Part shown: positions 28,301 through 44,194 of the stretch, piece after piece
Layout: every line of letters starts with the position of its first letter
How positions within the stretch are numbered: position 1 is the stretch's first letter
Source of the DNA: a virus
Lineage: Duplodnaviria > Heunggongvirae > Uroviricota > Caudoviricetes
Strand: one strand, 5' to 3'
DNA: 51,882 nt
IMG/VR virus record: IMGVR_UViG_3300047393_000041
Coordinates: 64,001 to 115,882 of that record
Program-made: the position numbers and the translations under genes
Notes under the pieces: model-generated
The model's input: only the letters and a program-made list of their open reading frames with translations
Told to the model about the DNA's origin: nothing
Database searches by the model: none

Positions 28301-30739
28301 TTAAAGATTGTCTAACCAGCCTCCTGGTTGTTTAGTATTGTAGTTTGTAAAGTTAGTTAGATTATCTAAGTTCTGCAAACCTTTTTGCTCTTGTCTTAAT
28401 CCGTTCTTAGCCATAGGAAACTCTGTTACCTTCTTTCCTTTGAACTTATAATTCTTTCCTGGTTTCATTAGTTTCGTATCTCCTGTATCAGATATACCAA
28501 GTACATCATAAGGAACTCCTTGCATTGTAATATCATTACTTCCTATTTCTGTTATCTCTCCTGGATGATCCCATTGTCCTCTATCATCTTTAATGACTCC
28601 TCCTTGTTTAAGTTGAGGAGACTCATTATTATTAATTTGAGAAGCAGCTCCGATAGTACCTACAGCTCCAGTAACAGCTGGAACATAGTTCATCATATAT
28701 CTAAACTTATTTCTATCATTTATTAAGTTAAAAAATTCAGGATCAACTTTTGATTTACCAGATATTCCTTTATCTATTATTTCATCAGCTCTTTCTGGTG
28801 TTAAATTTTCTCCAGGTTTTAAACCATGCTCATATCTTATTTCTGAAAGTCTTGCATTTATTTCTGTTGGATCTAATAAATAATCTGAAGTTTTTTCATA
28901 ACTACCACTATCTAATCTAGGTTTAAAATCTTTTAAATTAAATGGGGATTGTAACACATCTTCATATCCTGTAATAAAAGAATTACCATTCGTAAGACCA
29001 TGATTTCCTTCATGTATTGCTGTTGATGTAATCATGTCAGGATTTATATATTTATCAACTAAGTTTTGTCTTTTAGAAAGATTTTTATAAGGATCAAGAT
29101 ACCAACCTGAAACTCCATAGTTACCTTGATGTACTCTAGGGTTTCCATCTACAAAGTTATCAAGTTTATTTAAATTTGATTCAAATTCACTTCTATAATT
29201 TTTATTTTCTATATTTTTTAATAGTTGTTCTTCATTATATGACTTTGGACCATATCTACTAGAGGCTTCTGTTATTTTTTCTTTTGTTATTGGATGATTA
29301 TACCAATTATCCATCCACTGATTAGCTTTATCTAAACTTTTTTGTGCCTCAATATGATGTAATGGATTTATGATTTTAGGAAGTTTTTGTATAGAATTAT
29401 CAACTGCTTCTAATCTATTAAAAGTTTTATCAGTAAATATATTATTTTTTAAAAATTGTTTTGTTTTACGTCCAATACTACTTGCATTAGATAATATAGG
29501 TTGTTCTAATTTTGGAGCAATGCGTTCAGATATATCTCCTAACTTATTTCCTATATACTTTTCAGCTGAATGATAACCAGGAATTATATTAAGAGGATTA
29601 ATGAGATTATTAATAAACTGTGTATTTGATTTTGCTCCTATACCTTCTATTCCTCCTGTTAATAATGGAACACCTATACTTGTAACATAAGGCATATATG
29701 AATCTTCTTGTTGTGCTCTTAATGGAGCAGAACCTAAATCAGAAGCCATGTTACCAATCATCACTCCTGGATTCAACCATTCATCAACAAAATTATTTGG
29801 TTCATCAGGAAACATTCTAAACTTATCTCCTGTAGCTTGTGTTTCATCTGCAAGTTGTTGTCTCCAATTATCTTTTGTAAAAGATTTCTTTTGAGAAGCA
29901 GCACTTTTATTTAGTCTATCTTTTCTATCTTGTACAATAGCTTTATCTTTAGCTAGTTGGTTTGCTTTAACTTGATCTTTATATTCTTTAGTATCAAACC
30001 ATCTTCTAGAATCTTCAGATTGAGCTTCTTTATTTATAGATTGCTGTAGTGGTGTATTTGCTTTTTGATCTTTAGTAAATTTTTTAAAATCAAATTTAGA
30101 AGTCTTACTTCCATCTTGACTAATAGTCTTAGGTTTCCAATCTAATCCTTGTTGGTAGTATTGCATTTCTTTACCATTCTGTGCAGAAGCATCTGTAACA
30201 TCAGTTTGGTTTCTACGTGGCCCTTTACTAGGAGATCCATGTCTAGCATACATATGTCCTACAGCTCCTGGCATTACTCCTCCCATTTGAAATTCTTTCT
30301 GAGGAAACATTATATTTTCTCCTTTCTCAACTGCTGGATGTCTAGTTTCATTTTCCCATTTATCAGCTTCTTGCCATGTTTTAAATGGACCACCTAAATG
30401 TTCACCTGTTTTTCTAAATTCTCCCATTGGGTCATTTAATGGTTTACCATATTTAAAACTAGGAATTAAATAAGATGGTTCTCCATCTTCTCCACCTATA
30501 GACATAGCTCTTTCACTGCTAGGATCAGAATATGGAATTCTATATTCTTTTGGTAGTTTATCACTAGTTGGTTGTAAGAACTTAAGTTTACCTCCAGTTT
30601 GAAACTGTCCTCCCCATGCAGGAGAACTATTTCTACCTACATTGCTATATCCATCTCCTTGAAATCCTTCAGGAGCATGTGTTTGATAATCATTATAATT
30701 ATCATCTTTACCGAAATTGTCTAACCATCCTTTAGCCAT
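28301..30739 (-). CDS. Virion cargo protein with an internal HExxH zincin-like domain
   Basis: 812 aa. TAIHEGNHGLT at 29000-29014, later EINARLSEIR; GG motifs; GWLDN at both termini. Confidence 0.55.
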   Translation of the reverse strand: MAKGWLDNFGKDDNYNDYQTHAPEGFQGDGYSNVGRNSSPAWGGQFQTGGKLKFLQPTSDKLPKEYRIPYSDPSSERAMSIGGEDGEPSYLIPSFKYGKPLNDPMGEFRKTGEHLGGPFKTWQEADKWENETRHPAVEKGENIMFPQKEFQMGGVMPGAVGHMYARHGSPSKGPRRNQTDVTDASAQNGKEMQYYQQGLDWKPKTISQDGSKTSKFDFKKFTKDQKANTPLQQSINKEAQSEDSRRWFDTKEYKDQVKANQLAKDKAIVQDRKDRLNKSAASQKKSFTKDNWRQQLADETQATGDKFRMFPDEPNNFVDEWLNPGVMIGNMASDLGSAPLRAQQEDSYMPYVTSIGVPLLTGGIEGIGAKSNTQFINNLINPLNIIPGYHSAEKYIGNKLGDISERIAPKLEQPILSNASSIGRKTKQFLKNNIFTDKTFNRLEAVDNSIQKLPKIINPLHHIEAQKSLDKANQWMDNWYNHPITKEKITEASSRYGPKSYNEEQLLKNIENKNYRSEFESNLNKLDNFVDGNPRVHQGNYGVSGWYLDPYKNLSKRQNLVDKYINPDMITSTAIHEGNHGLTNGNSFITGYEDVLQSPFNLKDFKPRLDSGSYEKTSDYLLDPTEINARLSEIRYEHGLKPGENLTPERADEIIDKGISGKSKVDPEFFNLINDRNKFRYMMNYVPAVTGAVGTIGAASQINNNESPQLKQGGVIKDDRGQWDHPGEITEIGSNDITMQGVPYDVLGISDTGDTKLMKPGKNYKFKGKKVTEFPMAKNGLRQEQKGLQNLDNLTNFTNYNTKQPGGWLDNL

Positions 30740-31605
30740 TACTTATATGATATTTGTGCAGGAGTTAATATGAATTGGCTCACTAGGTGAACGTTTGATT
30801 GATTGTCGAGTATATGTCTCACTTTTAATTCTTTTGCTCTTAGAGGAGCTTTTTTGAAACTACGTGTATCATAATTCATATTCTCTTGGTTGATCACTTT
30901 ATCAATAGAAAGACTCTGACATCCAGTGTTAAACAATGGAATTTGAGAAGATTTTTGAAGAGCCCAGAATGTATTGTACTGATAGAAGTTATCACTCTTG
31001 GTATATAGAATTGTTTTACTATCTGTATTGAATATTGGGTATTGCATATACGCATGCATGTTGTTTAATGGTTTTGCCACTAAGTTTAATACACCAGAAC
31101 TCTGTTGTCCATTATATAGAACAGCTTTGTTAAACCATTTATCATTTGTTTCTATTCTTGTGTTATCATTAAACACACCATCTCGTATAGGAATATATTC
31201 ATATGCTTTTGTATAATCTTGTACATTCTGAAGAATCTCATCTTGATATTGATATGCAAAAGGATACTCGATAATGTATGGTTTTATATTTCCATAATAA
31301 GAATTGTATAATTCAATATTTGTTAAGTGTCTCCATATACATCCTGTTATAGTTTGTGTTAATTTGATATTATAATATTCGTCTCTAGTAATATCATGTA
31401 ATGATATAGTCTTTTCAGATTTACAATCTCCTGTAGATTTTAATGTAACCATAGTTACATTATCGTTTACAGTATAACTTATTCCTAATATAAGAGTTTT
31501 TTTAGAAACACCTTCTGCTATCACATTCCCAAACTGATCAAAGATTGAGAATGGTCCAGCAGTAGGTCCTACTTGTGTTAACTTTATTGTTATTACTTTT
31601 GACAT
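30739..31605 (-). CDS. C-terminal part of the muzzle/tail stabilisation protein, fused to N-terminal module A
   Basis: First ~70 aa match the N-termini of 40420, 41099 and 43097. The remainder (IWRHLTN...YYGNIKPYIIEYPF...LKVRHILDN) resembles the muzzle C-terminus (from memory). Confidence 0.6.
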   Translation of the reverse strand: MSKVITIKLTQVGPTAGPFSIFDQFGNVIAEGVSKKTLILGISYTVNDNVTMVTLKSTGDCKSEKTISLHDITRDEYYNIKLTQTITGCIWRHLTNIELYNSYYGNIKPYIIEYPFAYQYQDEILQNVQDYTKAYEYIPIRDGVFNDNTRIETNDKWFNKAVLYNGQQSSGVLNLVAKPLNNMHAYMQYPIFNTDSKTILYTKSDNFYQYNTFWALQKSSQIPLFNTGCQSLSIDKVINQENMNYDTRSFKKAPLRAKELKVRHILDNQSNVHLVSQFILTPAQISYK

Positions 31606-31614
31606 ATTAGTTTA

Positions 31615-34600
31615 TTAACAAGGTCCATTATTAATTAATGTTACTTCAGGAGGTGTAACTACACTTCCACTTCGTGCACAGAATGTTTGAGTTGAAGGTC
31701 CTCCACCAGAGTTACCAATATTTACAGTTTGGGTAACTCCTGAACAATCAGTATAACTCACTGTTACAACTCCCACTGTTGTTTTACTTATTGTATATGA
31801 GAAACAAGCTATTGTTGTAGTTGTTGTTGTTGTTGCAGGATTACAGTTAACTATTTCAGTTATTACACCATCTACAACATTAAATATATTTCCACTAGAA
31901 AGTGATTCACTTGTAAAATACCAACCATTAGATACAGTTGAACAATCTGTAGATTCACCATTGTATACAGTTTCACCAATATTCAAACTTTCGACTTGAA
32001 TAATAATACTATTTATAGATATTGTAATAGGCATAACACTTTTAATATAAGTTATGGCAGAACATGCATCTAATTGACTTCCTGTAGAAATTACTGTTGA
32101 AGGAGGAGATATTATATTGTATCCTGTAGCAAAACTAGTTGTTGTTAAATTTGTTGGTCTCACGCAAGGTTCAATTACAACTACACCAGTTCCTGCTAAT
32201 ATACAATCTGTTAATGTAACTTGTCCTGCAAGTGCACAATCAATTACATGAGATTCTCCATCTAATCTACAATCTAAAATTATAGTGGTGGTAGTACTTG
32301 TAGTTGGTGGTGTAGGAACTAATGTTCCAGCAACAAAATCAAAATCATCACAACATCCATTTACTCCTGAATAGAAGAAGTTATTTTCAGCTATGTACCA
32401 GTTAGGAATATAACTATGAAAGCTTATCCAAGTTTTAGTGTTCATGTTAAATGAAAGAGTCCAAGATTTATTACAAAAATAATCTGAATCTTTTAAATCA
32501 ACAACTGTGGTTAATATTGAATCACCAACTAATTCTTCTATGTAAAATTCCTTAGTTGTAGAATTATATTTAACATTATTAGTTAGCGGAATATAATCAA
32601 GTTTAGTAATAATTACTCTATCAAATTTACTATCATACACTGCATGTAAACCTACACCATTAAAATGATTATCAGTATCAACTGTTGGAAAATATCTTAA
32701 TATTTCAAATGCTAAATGGTCTGTGAAGAATCTATTCATTCCAGAACCAAATGCAGATAAGTCTTGAGCTTGTGTACCTGCAATGAGAAATACTTGTCCT
32801 CTTTTAGCATCAATTGTTATTTGTCCATTTGGAATCTTCAATAACATTTTATTTTGACTTCCTACATATCCAAGATCTGTTTCAGCAAAATCTATTGGAG
32901 GAGCTCCTTTAAATAACATTGGATTACCAACATAAGCTGCTTGCGGATTACTTGTATCAATGGTAAGTAAGTTATTGTACATTAATGTCTTATTCTCAAA
33001 TCTAGCAAGTATAGCTCTATTTTGAATACCATCTAATGATATTAAGTTTCCATAGTTTTGAGGAAAATCAAAATATGAAACTGCTCTATATGTTAACCAA
33101 CTGTTCACTCTATTATCAGCATCTGTATTCTGTGTATCAGAATAGATTGCTCTAAATGGATAATGTGTATAGCAAGCTTTTCCATCCCAGTCAGGAGGAA
33201 GATGTGTAAATGTATTTTCTTTATTTTGTTTAGAGAATGTTACATTATATGTATATGTATTATCATTAGCTATACTAACAAAATCTTCCTGTAACCAATC
33301 ATCAGGAATACCTGTTGATACATGTGGCCAGAAATCACCTTCTCTATTATTAAATGCTTGTCTAAGATCTGTATTATAAGAACTCTCACAATAGAAGTTA
33401 GGAACACCATATGCAAATAAATAAAAATATCCATCATAGAATGTTCTTTGAGATCCTGCATTAGGAGGAGGATATAAAGTTGGATCATTAGGACAATCAA
33501 ATTCATGGGCTTTATATGATATAATATTAGAAAGTAATCCTGATCCATTATTTGCATAATCTGATAATATAGATCTAGCAGAATGCCAGTATTTTGGATA
33601 AGCTATATTACCAATCTCATCATAAAATACATCACTATCATCTGGAGCATTAACTCTATTATCAATAAAGAATGGAAGTTTAGTTTTAAATGCAAATCTA
33701 CTTATAAATGTATCTCCGCCAAATATTGTAGAGCTTCCTGTAGTTTTAGTATTTTTTTGAAATCCTGTATCAATAGTAACATAAGAATATATTTGTCCCC
33801 ATTGATTAACAAAAGTATTTTTCAATGATGCGTAATATGAAACAACACTAATAGCTTGTTCGTTAGCAGGTGTTGCACAAGCACTGCTGTCACCTATAGT
33901 AAATCTGGATACATCAGTTACTCCTAACGCAGCCATGTTGACACTAGAACTAGGGAAAGGTAATGCTGTTTTTGATTCATCTGTTTTTAAATAAACAGAA
34001 GATTCTCTTTGATAATTATTTATATTAAAATCATCACCTACATTTTGTACTCCAGGAATTAAGTATCTAGATAGATCTATATATCGCTGTTTGATACCAA
34101 TATTATTAGGTATAGATGTATTATAATCATAACTAGCTGTAGAGTTAAATGATTGTGCATAGTTTCTTCTTGTTATACCATTTATATATATTTGTAGATA
34201 TGCTTGATATGTTGTAAACATAGCAGTAGCATTAAATTGACTTGTAATAGCTCCTAATCTACTAGAACTATCTAATGCATCTTCTTGTGCTTCTTTTGAA
34301 AGTAATCTATATTTAGCATTACTTCTGACTTGTACAAAATGCGCAGATCCTTTACCAAACATTACATTCTCCAGTTTAAGAGTATCTCCTAAAAATGGTT
34401 GACCAAATGATGTTTCAGGTGAATTAAATATTTGTCTATAACTATTATTAAATTGAGGCAAAGGACTTTCTACTCCACATGCATCAACTCTTACGGGATC
34501 TCTTTCATCAATTCCAGTATCATCACCACAATATTCTATACATTCAGGTTTAGGTGAACCTGGTTCAGTGTAAACAATATATTCAGTATATCCACTATCC

Positions 34601-36819
34601 CAGTTATTTGAACCTTGTAAATACACTTGTGTGAGTGCACCTTGAGTTCTATCTGTAAATTGAGCTCGCCATCCTTCACATGGATCAAAAAATCCTGGAC
34701 AATCACGATATAAATACCATACATCATAATTAGAATATGATATACATCCTACATTAGATGATAACATTACAGGTCCAGTGTTAGTTTGTTTTATTTGATT
34801 AAATGGTCCATTACCTAAGAATGTAGGTTTGTTTATTGAACACCAATCAAATACACCTAAACTCTCAAAGTTATGAGTAGCTAATTTATTAGTATTAGGA
34901 TCTATATATTGAATAGCTGTATATGGAGGTTTTCCTACTGGAAATTCATTAAATTTAAATATATTAATTTCAAAAGGTTGAGATTCTTTTGCCCAAGCAT
35001 TATTGGTTGTATTTAAAAAAGGATCTGCATTTAAATCATTATATGGATAGTTAGGAAAATAAAAAGATTGTTCTTCTCTTTTATATTTATTTACATTACG
35101 AAGAATTCCTTTACCTACAATAGATTTATTTGTTGCTCTATCTCCTCTTAGTATTTTAAATCCTACTATAGCAGCTTTTTGTTCATCTGTAAGAGACGAA
35201 CTTCGAATTAAAGTATTTACTTGAGTAATATCTATTTTTACTCCTATAGGAAATACATTATTATTTTGAAAAGATAATCCTGTAAGAGGATCATAACCTA
35301 TAACTGGTTTTGTTATAGGAGATACTAATACATCTGGAAATTTATGATGTCTAATCTTTTGTCCAGCAAGATCTCCCCATACATTAGTATTGCATGGATA
35401 TTCTTCTGTAGATTCCCAATATGCAAATTTACCATAGTTGTAAGCAGTGGCATTACCAATGTTAGTTGTTGCATCTACAGGAGATGTATTAATTACAGAA
35501 GCAGTGTTGTAAATTTCCCAATAAGGAGCACTTGTTCCTTCACCAATGAAATCTTGATTTGTATTAGGAACACTAACTAAATCACTACTTATTGCTTCTC
35601 TACTTGGTATATGAAAACCATCTGTTTGTTTTCCATTTCTAAGTAGGAATGCAATTTCAAAAGCATACACTTCATCACGAAGATAACCTCTTAAGTTAGT
35701 TGCGTTTAATTCATCTGAATAGTTTTCAGTTGGTGGTAATTTATATGTTTCCCAAAGTAAAGTTATACCTGTTGCTATCTCTTGATAATTAATTCTATCA
35801 ATAGATACTAAACCATCCCATATAAGAACATCTTGTGCTGTAGTTAAATCTTCAGCTATATCATAATATGGAAACTTTTCAAATATATCATTAATAGATA
35901 ATCTTATGGCAGTAACATCTTGTCCTGTATATGTAACTTGTTTAGTTACATTATCAATAAAATATGTACCAACTAATTCTACAGAACTAACTGCATTTAT
36001 TGTTTTAATAACTGCTAAGTTAAAATATGTATATTCTCCTGTTGTATCTAAATTAGAAACATCAACAACAATTGACTTACCTACATTATAATTATAATTT
36101 ACCGTTGTAATACTAATATCTGCAATTGGTGTAGGGTTTGTAATAGAATAATATGATGTATATGGATTACCAGAAGCATCTGCATATTGAACAGCAAATT
36201 GATATGTACCAGCAATTAATGCTCCTCCAGTTGTAATGTCTACAACTGAAAGATCTGGAATATTAAAATTAGGTTGTATTTTTAATTGATTACAATCTAC
36301 TTCTGTAGTGTATGTAGGATTGCAAAGATCTGAGCCAGGAGTTAATGTATAAGGAATATTTTCAATATCTAAATATCTTCTTGGATTATATCCATCTGTC
36401 CAATATATTTCAGTTTTACAATTAGCTATCTTATGTACAACTTTATGTATTGGATTATCAATATTAAAATTAAGACATGCTGAATTAATTAATGTATGAT
36501 ATATACAATCATTATTATCCATATAACCTATCTCACATGAACCATCATTAGGATTAGTAAGAAAGAATATATGTTTACTTTTTTCGTTGATAAAATGCTC
36601 TCCTATTAATACATAGTTTTTTGGAAAAGATAAACAAAGTTCATTTCCTTGTTCATTCTGATAATTAACAGATGATGAATCAAAGTTTTCTAAAGCAGCA
36701 TTTAAAGCGTAAGTCAATGTACCTGGTTTAATTTGGTTCAAAGTTTGATCCATATTTAAACCAATAGATGCATTATTATATTCTGCCTTGATATTTCCTT
36801 GTGGTTGTTCTTCAGCCAT
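31615..36819 (-). CDS. Muzzle / tail stabilisation protein (P22 gp10-like), N-terminal main part
   Basis: 1734 aa. GLNMD...YALNA N-terminus, YLRDEVYAFEI, IRHHKFPD, WTLSFNMNTKTWISFHSYIP; syntenic after the ring gene. The last ~250 aa are accessory modules. Confidence 0.75.
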   Translation of the reverse strand: MAEEQPQGNIKAEYNNASIGLNMDQTLNQIKPGTLTYALNAALENFDSSSVNYQNEQGNELCLSFPKNYVLIGEHFINEKSKHIFFLTNPNDGSCEIGYMDNNDCIYHTLINSACLNFNIDNPIHKVVHKIANCKTEIYWTDGYNPRRYLDIENIPYTLTPGSDLCNPTYTTEVDCNQLKIQPNFNIPDLSVVDITTGGALIAGTYQFAVQYADASGNPYTSYYSITNPTPIADISITTVNYNYNVGKSIVVDVSNLDTTGEYTYFNLAVIKTINAVSSVELVGTYFIDNVTKQVTYTGQDVTAIRLSINDIFEKFPYYDIAEDLTTAQDVLIWDGLVSIDRINYQEIATGITLLWETYKLPPTENYSDELNATNLRGYLRDEVYAFEIAFLLRNGKQTDGFHIPSREAISSDLVSVPNTNQDFIGEGTSAPYWEIYNTASVINTSPVDATTNIGNATAYNYGKFAYWESTEEYPCNTNVWGDLAGQKIRHHKFPDVLVSPITKPVIGYDPLTGLSFQNNNVFPIGVKIDITQVNTLIRSSSLTDEQKAAIVGFKILRGDRATNKSIVGKGILRNVNKYKREEQSFYFPNYPYNDLNADPFLNTTNNAWAKESQPFEINIFKFNEFPVGKPPYTAIQYIDPNTNKLATHNFESLGVFDWCSINKPTFLGNGPFNQIKQTNTGPVMLSSNVGCISYSNYDVWYLYRDCPGFFDPCEGWRAQFTDRTQGALTQVYLQGSNNWDSGYTEYIVYTEPGSPKPECIEYCGDDTGIDERDPVRVDACGVESPLPQFNNSYRQIFNSPETSFGQPFLGDTLKLENVMFGKGSAHFVQVRSNAKYRLLSKEAQEDALDSSSRLGAITSQFNATAMFTTYQAYLQIYINGITRRNYAQSFNSTASYDYNTSIPNNIGIKQRYIDLSRYLIPGVQNVGDDFNINNYQRESSVYLKTDESKTALPFPSSSVNMAALGVTDVSRFTIGDSSACATPANEQAISVVSYYASLKNTFVNQWGQIYSYVTIDTGFQKNTKTTGSSTIFGGDTFISRFAFKTKLPFFIDNRVNAPDDSDVFYDEIGNIAYPKYWHSARSILSDYANNGSGLLSNIISYKAHEFDCPNDPTLYPPPNAGSQRTFYDGYFYLFAYGVPNFYCESSYNTDLRQAFNNREGDFWPHVSTGIPDDWLQEDFVSIANDNTYTYNVTFSKQNKENTFTHLPPDWDGKACYTHYPFRAIYSDTQNTDADNRVNSWLTYRAVSYFDFPQNYGNLISLDGIQNRAILARFENKTLMYNNLLTIDTSNPQAAYVGNPMLFKGAPPIDFAETDLGYVGSQNKMLLKIPNGQITIDAKRGQVFLIAGTQAQDLSAFGSGMNRFFTDHLAFEILRYFPTVDTDNHFNGVGLHAVYDSKFDRVIITKLDYIPLTNNVKYNSTTKEFYIEELVGDSILTTVVDLKDSDYFCNKSWTLSFNMNTKTWISFHSYIPNWYIAENNFFYSGVNGCCDDFDFVAGTLVPTPPTTSTTTTIILDCRLDGESHVIDCALAGQVTLTDCILAGTGVVVIEPCVRPTNLTTTSFATGYNIISPPSTVISTGSQLDACSAITYIKSVMPITISINSIIIQVESLNIGETVYNGESTDCSTVSNGWYFTSESLSSGNIFNVVDGVITEIVNCNPATTTTTTTIACFSYTISKTTVGVVTVSYTDCSGVTQTVNIGNSGGGPSTQTFCARSGSVVTPPEVTLINNGPC

Positions 36820-40419: not shown

Positions 40420-41061
40420 TTATGGAATATATGTTATATCTAATCCACCAGATCCACCACCACCATCAGCACCTGGAGCTGCTGGTACTGTACTAGAAGC
40501 TCTCACTCTAATTTGATAAGTATATGTTCCTGCAGTTAAACTCATTGTATTCGTTGAGTATTGAGTTCCTGTAGATGATGATTTACTTGCAATAAAGTTA
40601 GTACCATTTATTGATATAGTAGTTTCAAGGGTAGTCCCATGATAAGTGGTTATCGTAGCATAAGCTTTTACTAAATAAGATCCAGTACCTGTAACAAGAA
40701 TAGTTCCTCCAGTACAGATTTTATCATCTATCATAGGGTCAGGTGTATTGGAATAACTAGAATATGCTCCTACTGAAAATCCGCATACCGTAGATGTAAT
40801 TGCATTCACTACAGTAGTAGTTGTAGTAGTTGTTGGTGTTACACCACCTAATGTTATATCAATATAATTTACACAGGCCCCTGTTGATTTAACTCTAATT
40901 ATTGTTGCACCATCAGGTACTACTGTAGAAGTGTAACCTGCAACTAATGCTGCCTTACTGACTCCTGTAGCAAATGCTGCTGAATATGAATCAATATTAG
41001 TGTAAAGATTGAATGGTCCAGAATCTGCACCTGCTGTTGTCAATGTTATTAATGCTGTCAT
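40420..41061 (-). CDS. Modular virion decoration/fibre protein (module A + poly-Thr + beta domain)
   Basis: 213 aa; GPFNLY...VPDGATIIRVKSTGACVNYIDI, then T7, then an Ig-like-looking head. Confidence 0.6.
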   Translation of the reverse strand: MTALITLTTAGADSGPFNLYTNIDSYSAAFATGVSKAALVAGYTSTVVPDGATIIRVKSTGACVNYIDITLGGVTPTTTTTTTVVNAITSTVCGFSVGAYSSYSNTPDPMIDDKICTGGTILVTGTGSYLVKAYATITTYHGTTLETTISINGTNFIASKSSSTGTQYSTNTMSLTAGTYTYQIRVRASSTVPAAPGADGGGGSGGLDITYIP

Positions 41062-41098
41062 TTTGTTTTTATTTTAAGTTGTTGTGTTATAATTTAAA

Positions 41099-41851
41099 TT
41101 AACATCCACTGCCTACAGTTACTATATTTGCAATTACGCCATCAGTTAATTCATATATTTGAATACCTGATCTTACTGCATCATAACTAATTGGTGTGAT
41201 GAGAGCTGGAGTTGTATAAAGTGTTACACCAAGTCCTAATGTAGGAGAATTTGAATATGCAGTAATTACTCCTGATGGAGTCCATGTTATTGCACCATTA
41301 CATCCAACTGTTCCTGCTGTTAGATTAAATGTATAATATGTAATTGGTGCAGGTGTAGTTCTAGTAGTAGTAGTTGTTGGTGTTACAGTTGTTATTGTTG
41401 TTGTAGTTGTTGGTGTTGAAGTAGTCGTCGTTGTGGTTGTTATTTCTTCTGCACTCCCTTGAATTGCACAATCTAAAACTATAACAGTAGTAGTTGTGGT
41501 TGTTGTTGGTATTACAGTTGTTGTTGTTGTTGTTGTTATTTCATCTGCGATTCCTTCAATTGTACAATCTAAAGCTACAGTAGTAGTAGTAGTTGTAGTT
41601 ACTTCATATGCATTTCCGTCAAGTTCACACAATGCAAGATATATATCAGTATAGTTTGAGCAAATCTCGTTTACAGATTGAATCCTAACAATTGTTGTAC
41701 CGTTAGGAATTTGATCTGTTGGATATCCAGTAGTCAATATTAATTTACTAATGTTAGTTGCAAATGGTACTGAATAACCTGTTACATCTGAATATAAATT
41801 AAAAGGACCTGTGTCTACTCCTGCTACTGTTAATAATATTATTCCTGTCAT
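41099..41851 (-). CDS. Modular decoration protein (module A + CxphixG/poly-Thr repeats + module D)
   Basis: 250 aa with multiple T5-T7 tracts and three CxphixG motifs. Confidence 0.6.
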   Translation of the reverse strand: MTGIILLTVAGVDTGPFNLYSDVTGYSVPFATNISKLILTTGYPTDQIPNGTTIVRIQSVNEICSNYTDIYLALCELDGNAYEVTTTTTTTVALDCTIEGIADEITTTTTTTVIPTTTTTTTVIVLDCAIQGSAEEITTTTTTTSTPTTTTTITTVTPTTTTTRTTPAPITYYTFNLTAGTVGCNGAITWTPSGVITAYSNSPTLGLGVTLYTTPALITPISYDAVRSGIQIYELTDGVIANIVTVGSGC

Positions 41852-41870
41852 TATTTTAAAATTTTACATG

Positions 41871-43037
41871 TTAAATATAAGAACACGATCCACCTATCTT
41901 TGTGGTAATACCTAATGTATTTCCATTTAAATTCCAGCAAGATGCAATAGATCTAACTGAATTTACAGTAGCAGCTACAGTAAGTTCTTTGTTTTGCCAT
42001 AATGATATACCAGGAATTAATGTTTTTGAACTTGAATATAACACTATTGTACCAGAAGCATTAAACACTACAGAATTAGAATTACAACTAATTGTACCAT
42101 ATGTTAAACTATGACTAAACCATACTACAGGTTTTAAAACTACTGATGCTTTTCCAGCTAATGTACAAATTTTTGCTTTAGTTGTAGTGGTAGTTGTTAA
42201 TTTTTTGGTAGTAGTTGTTGTTGTGGTTAATTTCTTAGTGGTAGTCGTAGTTGTTGTTAACTTTTTAGTAGTGGTGGTAGTAGTAGTTAACTTTTTAGTA
42301 GTGGTGGTAGTGGTTAATAGTTTTTTAGTTGTTGTACTTGTAGTAGATGCTGGATAAACAACTGTCATATTTCCAGCAAATGTACAAGCAGGATCTATAA
42401 TAGGATCAACTAAAACTCTAACTGAGTAACCATATTGACCAGCCTTTAGAGGTAAATAAGTTCTCCAAACCCAATCATTATTTGCCTCGATGTGAAAAGT
42501 TTCTATACCCTCAGCAGTTACTGTAGAACTCCACAACATTAATTCTTTACCAAGATCTGTAAATTGTGGACCACTAAGGTATGAAATTATAGCTCCAGCT
42601 GGAAGAGCTGTAAATCCACTACTGTTAGTAGCAGTGTTATTTGGAGCATCCCAATGAGCAATTCCTGTCTCTCTAAGTTTATCACCTAAATTTCCAGTTT
42701 CATTAGTTACATACTCGAGTAACTTAAAAAATTCATCACTCGATGGGATATGATATCCAACTGGTGCAAGTTTTTTACGTAATTTTGTATCTGTTTTTGA
42801 TGCTTCATTCCATATTCCTGCAACTGCATACCAGTTGTATAATTTACCATAAATTGCTCCATTTGCTGGATCATTTTTATAATAACACCAAGCTCCAGTT
42901 GTTAAATTTTTCCAATATGTTGGATTTGTTACTTGAGGAATTATTGTACCATCAGTATATTTAGACACATCTAAATTTTTAGCTGACCATTGTTGTGTAC
43001 CTATCTGTACTGTGGGTAATAATAATGCTGTTGCCAT
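41871..43037 (-). CDS. Fibrobacter succinogenes major paralogous (FISUMP) domain protein with Thr-rich stalk
   Basis: QIGTQQWSAKNLDV...AWCYY.NDPANGAIYGKLYNWYAV...LAPVGYHIPS...GFTALPAG is the Fib_succ_major signature. Confidence 0.85.
   Translation of the reverse strand: MATALLLPTVQIGTQQWSAKNLDVSKYTDGTIIPQVTNPTYWKNLTTGAWCYYKNDPANGAIYGKLYNWYAVAGIWNEASKTDTKLRKKLAPVGYHIPSSDEFFKLLEYVTNETGNLGDKLRETGIAHWDAPNNTATNSSGFTALPAGAIISYLSGPQFTDLGKELMLWSSTVTAEGIETFHIEANNDWVWRTYLPLKAGQYGYSVRVLVDPIIDPACTFAGNMTVVYPASTTSTTTKKLLTTTTTTKKLTTTTTTTKKLTTTTTTTKKLTTTTTTTKKLTTTTTTKAKICTLAGKASVVLKPVVWFSHSLTYGTISCNSNSVVFNASGTIVLYSSSKTLIPGISLWQNKELTVAATVNSVRSIASCWNLNGNTLGITTKIGGSCSYI
42181..42340 (-). repeat. 30-nt degenerate tandem repeat encoding (KKLTTTTTTT)n, ~5 units
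   Basis: ttaa-y-ttt-y-tt recurs at 42197, 42227, 42257 and 42287; third codon positions vary. Confidence 0.9.
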
Positions 43038-43096
43038 TTATTAATTTTTATTATTATAATTATGTAAACTTTTAATCTTAACTTTATTATTGCTAT

Positions 43097-44194
43097 TTAA
43101 CATGATCTCATAATTTGCCATCCAGCCAAACCTCCAAAACCAGTTATTCTAACTGTTATATTAGGATTTACTGCATAATCATCACTAGTATATTTCCACC
43201 ACATTAATTGTTGAAAGTTAATCTTAAATCCACTGTATGCACCTATACCATCAATATTTTTTGCTAACAATAATGGAGATCCAGTTTCTGCAGTATATTC
43301 AGTTTGACGTGAGTATATTGGTAAACTATTAAAATCTCCTGACAATGAATATGCTCCAGTAAAACCATTCCATATATAGTGAGGATATGTTGACAAACCA
43401 TATTGTATATTATTACTAATATTATTAATATCATTATAACTAAAATATCCATCACTATAATAACGACAACTTAAATCGCCTGAATTATCAAATGGGCCTG
43501 AGTTAAAAACTGTAAAAATTGGATCTTGCTGACGAAGACTAAGATTTGGATTAAATATATTGTCGTTCCCATAAAAACTTCCTGATGTTGCTTTTTTGAT
43601 ACCATCATGAAGTATTTCAAATTTAATTGGAGCAGCATCTTGACGTAAGTTAAGTGTAACTACTCCTCCTTCAGGAGATAACTCAATAGTATATTCACGT
43701 TTTCCTGCTCCTTGTTTTAATATATAACAATCTAATGGTTGAAGATTTGTTGATATTGGTCCACTAGTTGTAGTTGTAGTTGTTGTATTAGGACATGTGC
43801 CTTGTATAACAAATGGTCCACATCCACTCCACGTATCACTTCTTGCACATTTAATATTAAAATATTGACCAGCACTTACAAAAGTAGACAGTATTTCATC
43901 ATTGCAACCAATCCAACGTATATCACAATCAGTTGCAGCTGGTCCATATCTAACATCATGACATGTAAGTTTAATAATTGGTGCAGGAATATTTATAATA
44001 CTATTACAGTCTCCTATAGAAATAATTTTAATATTATTTACTGTACTTGGAAGTGCTGTTGTAAGATAACCTATAATTAATTGATCTTTAGTCACTCCTG
44101 ATGCAAAAGGAATTGTGTAGTTATCAGCATCTGAATATAAATCAAATGGGCCTGTATTAGCTCCTGCTGATGTTAATTTAATAATTGATGTCAT
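43097..44194 (-). CDS. Modular decoration protein (module A + module C + poly-Thr + unique head)
   Basis: 365 aa; GANTGPFDLYSD...SIGDCNSIINI, then CDIRWIGC...CARS...GTC, T7, and a ~220-aa head. Confidence 0.6.
   Translation of the reverse strand: MTSIIKLTSAGANTGPFDLYSDADNYTIPFASGVTKDQLIIGYLTTALPSTVNNIKIISIGDCNSIINIPAPIIKLTCHDVRYGPAATDCDIRWIGCNDEILSTFVSAGQYFNIKCARSDTWSGCGPFVIQGTCPNTTTTTTTSGPISTNLQPLDCYILKQGAGKREYTIELSPEGGVVTLNLRQDAAPIKFEILHDGIKKATSGSFYGNDNIFNPNLSLRQQDPIFTVFNSGPFDNSGDLSCRYYSDGYFSYNDINNISNNIQYGLSTYPHYIWNGFTGAYSLSGDFNSLPIYSRQTEYTAETGSPLLLAKNIDGIGAYSGFKINFQQLMWWKYTSDDYAVNPNITVRITGFGGLAGWQIMRSC

Follow-up and report, generated by a model that had tools for sequence, protein, structure and literature searches.

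Two predicted chains for one tail muzzle: a conserved split with added modules in freshwater crAss-type phages

Among the tail proteins of crAss-type phages the muzzle is the most conserved, and it is believed to gate the release of DNA and cargo. Muzzles of Pfam family PF25731 have five domains: a ring-joining domain, a seven-bladed propeller, IG1, IG2 and the crass fold. Here we describe a locus in which muzzle sequence is divided between two adjacent genes. The locus lies in a 51,882-nucleotide (nt) stretch of viral DNA, positions 64,001 to 115,882 of IMG/VR record IMGVR_UViG_3300047393_000041; this whole stretch is referred to below as the window. The source is a freshwater crAss-type phage; its genome record, 115,882 bp long, carries direct terminal repeats and is rated complete. 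All genes of the region are on the minus strand.

The described muzzle that serves for comparison is gp44 of crAss001 (PF25731; Bayfield et al. 2023, PMC10172136). In that phage, the ring-joining domain together with the propeller makes up the muzzle's proximal end, and the crass domain makes up its tip (PMC10172136, PMC10136315). The window muzzle shares with gp44 the N-terminal family match (124 bits) and the genomic setting, that of a large tail-end protein encoded after ring-protein-sized genes and before cargo proteins and a giant virion RNA polymerase. In sequence it is too far from gp44 to give a PDB match. Moreover, gp44 and the muzzles of all cultured relatives found (Lbo-JY46, csAssE-Sib, FpV4 and phi17:2) are one chain, whereas the window muzzle is encoded as two, with a further ~330 residues at the cut. 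Loops of this C-terminal region also accommodate extra domains in FpV4 gp29, Cellulophaga phi17:2 gp043 and the metagenomic homologue P0024, yet these proteins stay one chain. Introns and inteins of crAss-like phages also make core virion genes appear interrupted (PMC10136315), but at this locus there is no ribozyme or Hint signature, and the interrupting sequence is protein-coding, modular and retained. Among the papers searched there was no report of a split muzzle in Crassvirales or crAss-type phages.

By analogy, the closest solved precedent is the split nozzle of the Pseudomonas podophage A1002, solved in 2026, which is built from a nozzle-base (gp42) and a nozzle-rope (gp39) (PMC13730344). 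There, too, two polypeptides jointly make a nozzle-type fold, each completing the other in the propeller and platform parts, an arrangement that for the window protein is predicted only. In both cases the chain with the C-terminal fragment has an N-terminal Ig-like (immunoglobulin-like) extension, which in the window is module A, described below. A1002 belongs to an unrelated phage lineage, and the likeness is drawn from architecture, not sequence. Its two genes are not adjacent, and its extension is a 300-Å rope that docks fibre dimers. In the window, by contrast, the two cistrons lie directly next to each other and a variable tail is added to the N-terminal fragment as well; relatives include three-chain forms.

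Judging from genes and prediction only, we consider it highly probable that the window encodes a functional two-chain muzzle. The parts of the locus are as follows.

31615..36819, minus strand: muzzle chain 1 (MuzN, P0001, 1734 aa), the muzzle body plus an added C-terminal tail
32353..36819, minus strand: muzzle-homologous part of chain 1, residues 1-1489, ending NFFYSGVNGC, placed by alignment to one-chain muzzles
31618..32352, minus strand: added tail of chain 1, residues 1490-1734, with no counterpart in unsplit homologues
31840..32157, minus strand: tail module 'D-like', residues 1555-1660, predicted alpha/beta fold (predicted local distance difference test, pLDDT, 63-94)
31618..31812, minus strand: tail module 'C', residues 1670-1734, predicted small beta sandwich with conserved Cys (pLDDT ~93)
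31606..31617, minus strand: double stop TAA TAA (31612-31617) and a 6-nt spacer ahead of the chain 2 ATG, read from the sequence
30739..31605, minus strand: muzzle chain 2 (MuzC, P0002, 288 aa), made up of module A and the final ~200 aa of the muzzle fold
31351..31605, minus strand: module A, chain 2 residues 1-85, predicted FN3/Ig-like beta sandwich
30742..31341, minus strand: muzzle C-terminal fragment, chain 2 residues 89-288, placed by homology to unsplit muzzle C-termini
32353..32358, minus strand: border hexamer GGATGT, Gly1488-Cys1489 of chain 1
31339..31344, minus strand: border hexamer GGATGT, Gly88-Cys89 of chain 2

Residues 19-302 of P0001 matched Pfam crAss_MUZ well above the family cut-off of 27 bits, and the protein matched phrog_37948, a PHROG of virion structural proteins, with E 1.9e-118. 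Muzzle homology in P0001 runs to residue ~1489 (NGC) and resumes at Cys89 of P0002; residues 1479-1490 of the former read ...NNFFYSGVNGCC, and residues 84-96 of the latter read ...QTITGCIWRHLTN. In the 1654-aa one-chain protein of Lbo-JY46, residues 1197-1455 align with P0001 1212-1486 (E 5e-54) and residues 1463-1641 with P0002 90-275 (E 2e-22), so that only 7 residues separate the two matches. A tblastn search of GenBank phages similarly placed both flanks side by side inside single genes of Leptolyngbya phage Lbo-JY46, of csAssE-Sib, where the homologue is annotated 'Muzzle protein', and of a faecal contig. In a multiple alignment of ten unsplit homologues, including those of Lbo-JY46, csAssE-Sib, FpV4 and phi17:2, the flanks meet at a loop of 3-9 residues, as in FYSGLNG-TDSS-LWIH of a 50%-identical relative. 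Among 1.84 billion representative proteins searched, many muzzles of 1400-2100 aa have C-termini that match P0002 from residue ~85-90 onward, and the muzzle part of P0002 is up to 45-58% identical to unsplit muzzle C-termini. By these alignments, the interruption of muzzle homology is far beyond chance. The original prediction, that muzzle sequence stops at ~32350, restarts at 31344 in the next open reading frame (ORF) and is thus encoded as two chains, therefore holds: the flanks are contiguous in one-chain homologues, whereas the window has two ORFs with TAA TAA and a new ATG between them. Our search of the window's complete genome found no second muzzle C-terminus, and PHROGs held no family for P0002.

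The split is conserved. We scanned IMG/VR and recovered 415 relatives of P0002; counts of relatives given here and below are from the best 80, 79 of which had readable upstream DNA. A separate chain 2 ORF of 287-288 aa, 68-97% identical to that of the window, was present in these best 80 of the 415 loci. In 79/79 relatives with upstream DNA the cut is at the same place, and the upstream ORF has muzzle homology ending NFFYSG-x-N-G-C-C, followed by a tail of 131-563 aa and a TAA stop. The chain 2 ATG comes -1 to 19 nt after the upstream stop in these relatives (9 nt lie between the cistrons in the window), and in 49 of the upstream chains poly-Thr directly precedes it. Full-length P0001 homologues were found in 42 IMG/VR loci; N1487, C1489 and C1490 are invariant in these 42 sequences, as is Cys89 of chain 2 in 66 sequences; C61 of chain 2 is likewise invariant. 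Mean pairwise identity among relatives is 81% for the muzzle part of chain 2 and 80% for the neighboring part of chain 1, which argues that the fragment behind the stops is under the same constraint as the muzzle body. Identity is lower for module A (51%) and lowest for the chain 1 tail (43%), the most variable part. At the low end, split-form representatives are 35% identical (P0036). A quick tree built from 88 rows of the C-terminal fragment placed eight split representatives, together with the unsplit P0024, in one group nested among unsplit muzzles, with branching not resolved; this sequence tree is compatible with a single origin of the split. The original prediction had pictured an inserted gene junction and had set this against relatives that all encode two genes lacking an insert. 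The split is no one-off insertion but an old, fixed feature of a large clade, and an insert is present in all split relatives.

If chain 2 needs a partner, it should fold poorly alone, and this is how it looks: in a model of P0002 by itself, the muzzle part had pLDDT <50, as against 80-89 for module A. We then co-folded three pieces (chain 1 residues 1-330, chain 1 residues 1150-1500, and chain 2) with their own alignments and three controls. The interaction prediction score from aligned errors (ipSAE) was 0.79 (0.76-0.83 across runs) versus 0.00 for the best of the 3 controls, although halves of one fold can pass by likeness. The mark for this test is reached by 58/80 solved complexes and by 2/110 mismatched pairs. 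The runs shared at least 53% of contacts, and partner pLDDT was at least 55. The lowest-error contacts joined chain 2 residues 90-93 to chain 1 residues 1481-1485, the two sides of the cut loop, and chain 2 residues 109-113 to an N-terminal strand of chain 1 (36-41).

The 1008 nt between the border hexamers correspond to 336 codons, of which 245 belong to the chain 1 tail and 87 to chain 2, with TAA TAA ACT AAT in between. Read in order, the segment encodes a CDDFDFVAG head, poly-Thr, three C-x-L-x-G repeats (module B), a ~105-aa module, poly-Thr, a ~65-aa Cys module, the stops, the ATG and a ~85-aa module. This is the order originally proposed. The CDDFDFVAG head is conserved among relatives. 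AlphaFold models of the tail showed two modules with pLDDT 75-94 separated by disordered poly-Thr and repeat linkers. Fold searches with the tail model returned nothing informative (VIA Z <=4.3, Foldseek E >=0.26) and gave no evidence of new folds; the best structural matches of module C were uninformative (Z <=4.3), and the D-like module had no significant fold or family match. Pfam and NCBIfam searches of the window's tail, P0002 and the long tails of three relatives (L018, L033 and L039) recognized no family. The suggestion that these modules are adhesins thus finds no support in the fold searches.

Module A, folded alone, formed a confident beta sandwich (residues 1-85). Its structural matches were generic FN3/Ig domains (Z 5-6.1, root-mean-square deviation 2.3-3.5 Å over 64-76 residues), and even the best of them (Z 6.1, 2.3 Å over 64 residues) is not diagnostic. 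The module recurs in a set of genes elsewhere in the window:

40420..44194, minus strand: four accessory genes of a shared module pool, three headed by module A (40420-41061, 41099-41851 and 43097-44194) and one FISUMP ORF (41871-43037)

Module A is homologous to the N-termini of ORF 40420-41061 (BLAST E 3e-9; E 4e-8 in a search of the phage's own genome) and ORF 43097-44194 (E 3e-6 and 6e-6, respectively), and ORF 41099-41851 starts with module A by inspection. The chain 1 side was different. Profile hidden Markov models of modules B, D and C found no accessory gene among all window ORFs; in shuffle tests against the accessory genes, B gave a weak signal (z 2.9 and 4.6), and D and C gave z <1. 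Hence the proposal that the segment combines the 3' end of one accessory gene with the 5' start of another stands for the 5' start, where module A is shared with accessory N-termini. For the 3' end it is weak in B and lacks detectable similarity in C and D, so this part of the claim draws on architecture rather than tail homology. The architecture is helped by relatives in which chain 1 ends with a FISUMP domain (PF09603, E 1.4e-19) after poly-Thr, as in L036 (5527-6426) and L029; ORF 41871-43037 of the window is headed by the same family (E 7.8e-31). These chain ends had been candidates for a duplicated muzzle C-terminus, which we rejected on finding the FISUMP domain. The sharing of sequence modules identifies a real module pool at the level of the clade.

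We propose that the two polypeptides reassemble one muzzle fold. Chain 1 would supply the muzzle body (1-1489) and a 245-aa string of Thr-linked, Cys-containing small modules; chain 2 would begin with the FN3/Ig-like module A and end with the ~200 residues that finish the muzzle fold. Because the cistrons abut, the two chains are probably made together in equal amounts, through coupled translation. Strand pairing would then complete the propeller/ring-joining part by fragment complementation. The cut would yield two free ends on the outside of the essential hexamer, probably facing outward. The new C-terminus would carry the fast-changing module array in six copies per virion, possibly in contact with host surface glycans, and the new N-terminus would carry the conserved module A. 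Display at the tail tip, as first envisaged, is not supported, as the cut maps to the C-terminal propeller/ring-joining part, which is proximal in crAss001; the cut ends are more likely to come out close to where the muzzle joins the tail barrel. Whether the variable tail of chain 1 binds the host we would put at roughly even odds. If the proposal is right, a muzzle can be cut inside its propeller/ring-joining end and yet be kept over long evolutionary time, and cut ends hung with fast-changing modules would offer podophages with a fixed tail machine a way to gain host-contact surfaces. It would also name candidate host-range determinants in an abundant group of uncultured freshwater phages.

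Several results count against this interpretation and temper it. Alignment of the locus to crAss001 gp44 by hhalign was weak (E 0.014, probability 3%) and put the cut near residue 1237 of 1371, with C-terminal motifs aligned, again weakly, over gp44 1237-1304. PDB sequence searches with P0001, with P0002 and with an 86-sequence profile of the C-terminal fragment gave no match and therefore no sequence-based placement of the cut on the solved gp44 structure. The co-fold result may reflect memory of solved one-chain nozzles and muzzles, the pieces being halves of one fold, and the use of own alignments and three chains departs from the calibration of the tool. The tree is a quick one, and the unsplit P0024 sits inside its split group. 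Lastly, the tail modules match no known binding fold or family, which leaves a host-binding role unproven.

The same C-terminal region is divided again in some relatives. In 30/79 there is a third muzzle cistron (e.g. L033:6437-7999 and L036:6422-7996). At these three-chain loci, chain 1 stops shortly past ITKLDY, either in poly-Thr or in an additional tail, and the middle protein (290-615 aa) has ~64 muzzle residues at its N-terminus (M...DYFCNKSW...NFFYSGLNGCC) followed by a Thr-linked tail of 220-520 aa. The one-chain proteins FpV4 gp29 (L084:1856-7741), phi17:2 gp043 (L085:1315-8184) and P0024 carry in-frame inserts of ~290-330 aa between ITKxDY and DxxYFxxxS[FW]T, which is the second fission site of the three-chain relatives. 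None of these inserts matched a Pfam family. From such alignments, loops of the muzzle C-terminal region are hot spots for insertion and fission. A DRSGS motif in the FpV4 insert resembles the metal site of von Willebrand factor A (vWA) domains. Three proteins of ~290 aa (P0081, P0110 and P0115) were considered as other split forms and rejected, since their muzzle sequence is continuous across the site; on sequence they are fragments or differently started unsplit genes. They begin at nearly one muzzle position, just before ITKxDY, and these starts could mark another fission site or truncated gene calls.

Could the mature muzzle of the window nevertheless be one chain, or be broken altogether? 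Removal or bypass of the ~1-kb segment, by a group I or II intron, an intein or split intein, or stop read-through or bypass, has some appeal, given that core genes of some crAss-like groups commonly contain introns and inteins (PMC10136315). The two window ORFs lie in one frame with a Cys after each border, and excision between the repeats would restore ...FYSGVNGCIWRH... Yet an Rfam search of 30500-32700 found no intron family at E up to 1, the only hit being a chance snoRNA match below threshold, and neither chain contained a Hint/intein family at E up to 0.1. Cys89 is preceded by T-I-T-G (Ala in relatives) and not by His-Asn, and module A folds like FN3. Moreover, the segment encodes conserved, foldable modules, which on the chain 1 side vary four-fold in length (131-563 aa) and are swapped. 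Read-through is unlikely because the stops are all TAA, doubled in the window, and the two ORFs share a frame in only 20/79 relatives. Overall, we regard removal or bypass as very improbable. More improbable still is a disabling insertion or an assembly error that left a broken muzzle. An essential gene broken by stop codons is what damage is expected to look like, but 79 independent assemblies share this split at identities down to 68%, as do representatives at identities down to 35%; the fragment downstream of the stops matches the body in conservation (81% versus 80%), and the window genome is complete with terminal repeats. The split is neither damage nor an assembly artefact.

A different role for the added pieces deserves more weight, although we think it unlikely. 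Here the muzzle would still be two chains, but module A and the CCDDFDFVAG head would clasp them together, perhaps through disulfides involving C1489/C1490 and C61/C89, and the remainder of the tail would serve as decoration or as a dock for A-headed accessory proteins. The cysteines at both borders are invariant, which suggests from sequence that C1489, C1490, C61 and C89 may staple the chains, and residues 3-16 and 53-77 of module A and 1486-1500 of chain 1 appear in the co-fold interface list. Tails of crAss001 are stabilized by disulfides (PMC10172136), and the split-nozzle extension of A1002 docks fibre dimers (PMC13730344). A clasp, however, leaves the tail's least conservation, module swaps and four-fold length range unexplained; the deep split relative P0036 has no border Cys, and the interface list names no pairing partners for module A. 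A separate question is how the split arose. Instead of a ready-made gene junction, an in-frame array of modules may have been inserted into the loop and later cut by a stop and start between modules, an origin to which we give nearly an even chance. In-frame inserts of this kind (~290-330 aa) occupy the neighboring hot spot in FpV4 gp29, phi17:2 gp043 and P0024, the same hot spot is a second fission site in 30/79 relatives, and the poly-Thr found right before the chain 2 ATG in 49/79 upstream chains looks like a cut linker. Against this origin, module A is N-terminal in all three accessory genes that bear it, as expected of a captured gene start, and none of 150 representatives was an unsplit protein carrying module A in the loop. 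Both origins, gene-junction insertion and in-frame insertion followed by fission, are compatible with the data and explain them equally well.

The border repeat does little to decide the matter. GGATGT is present exactly at the positions first reported, 32353-32358 and 31339-31344, and a 6-bp match at one register has a chance of ~6e-4 at the local base composition. The hexamers are identical at both borders in only 25/79 relatives, and the chain 2 side encodes Ala-Cys in 43/79. The early caution that the match may be chance was apt: the repeat is not conserved and is weak evidence. In the nearest unsplit relative, P0024, a Cys already precedes the Trp, so the border Cys is probably ancestral.

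Returning to the two-chain muzzle with variable ends, we suggest, tentatively and as a less likely reading, that its cut ends serve as an evolvable rack for display and give birth to fibre-like genes. Where relatives have three chains, the ~64 muzzle residues (roughly one blade) would anchor a separate protein of 290-615 aa. Module A might be a common plug that docks accessory proteins beside chain 2, possibly on the CCDDFDFVAG segment and fixed there by disulfides. For annotation the split carries a warning: when a muzzle gene is followed by a short gene labelled 'hypothetical', that gene may encode the final piece of the muzzle.

Two neighboring genes were also noted. In csAssE-Sib, a TnpB-family gene (L003:121-1344) lies directly upstream of the one-chain muzzle gene. 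In the window, the gene after chain 2 (28301-30739) starts at the chain 2 stop codon and encodes an 812-aa protein with no family match; its relatives range from 671 to 1761 aa and keep the start MAKGWLDN and the end QPGGWLDN.

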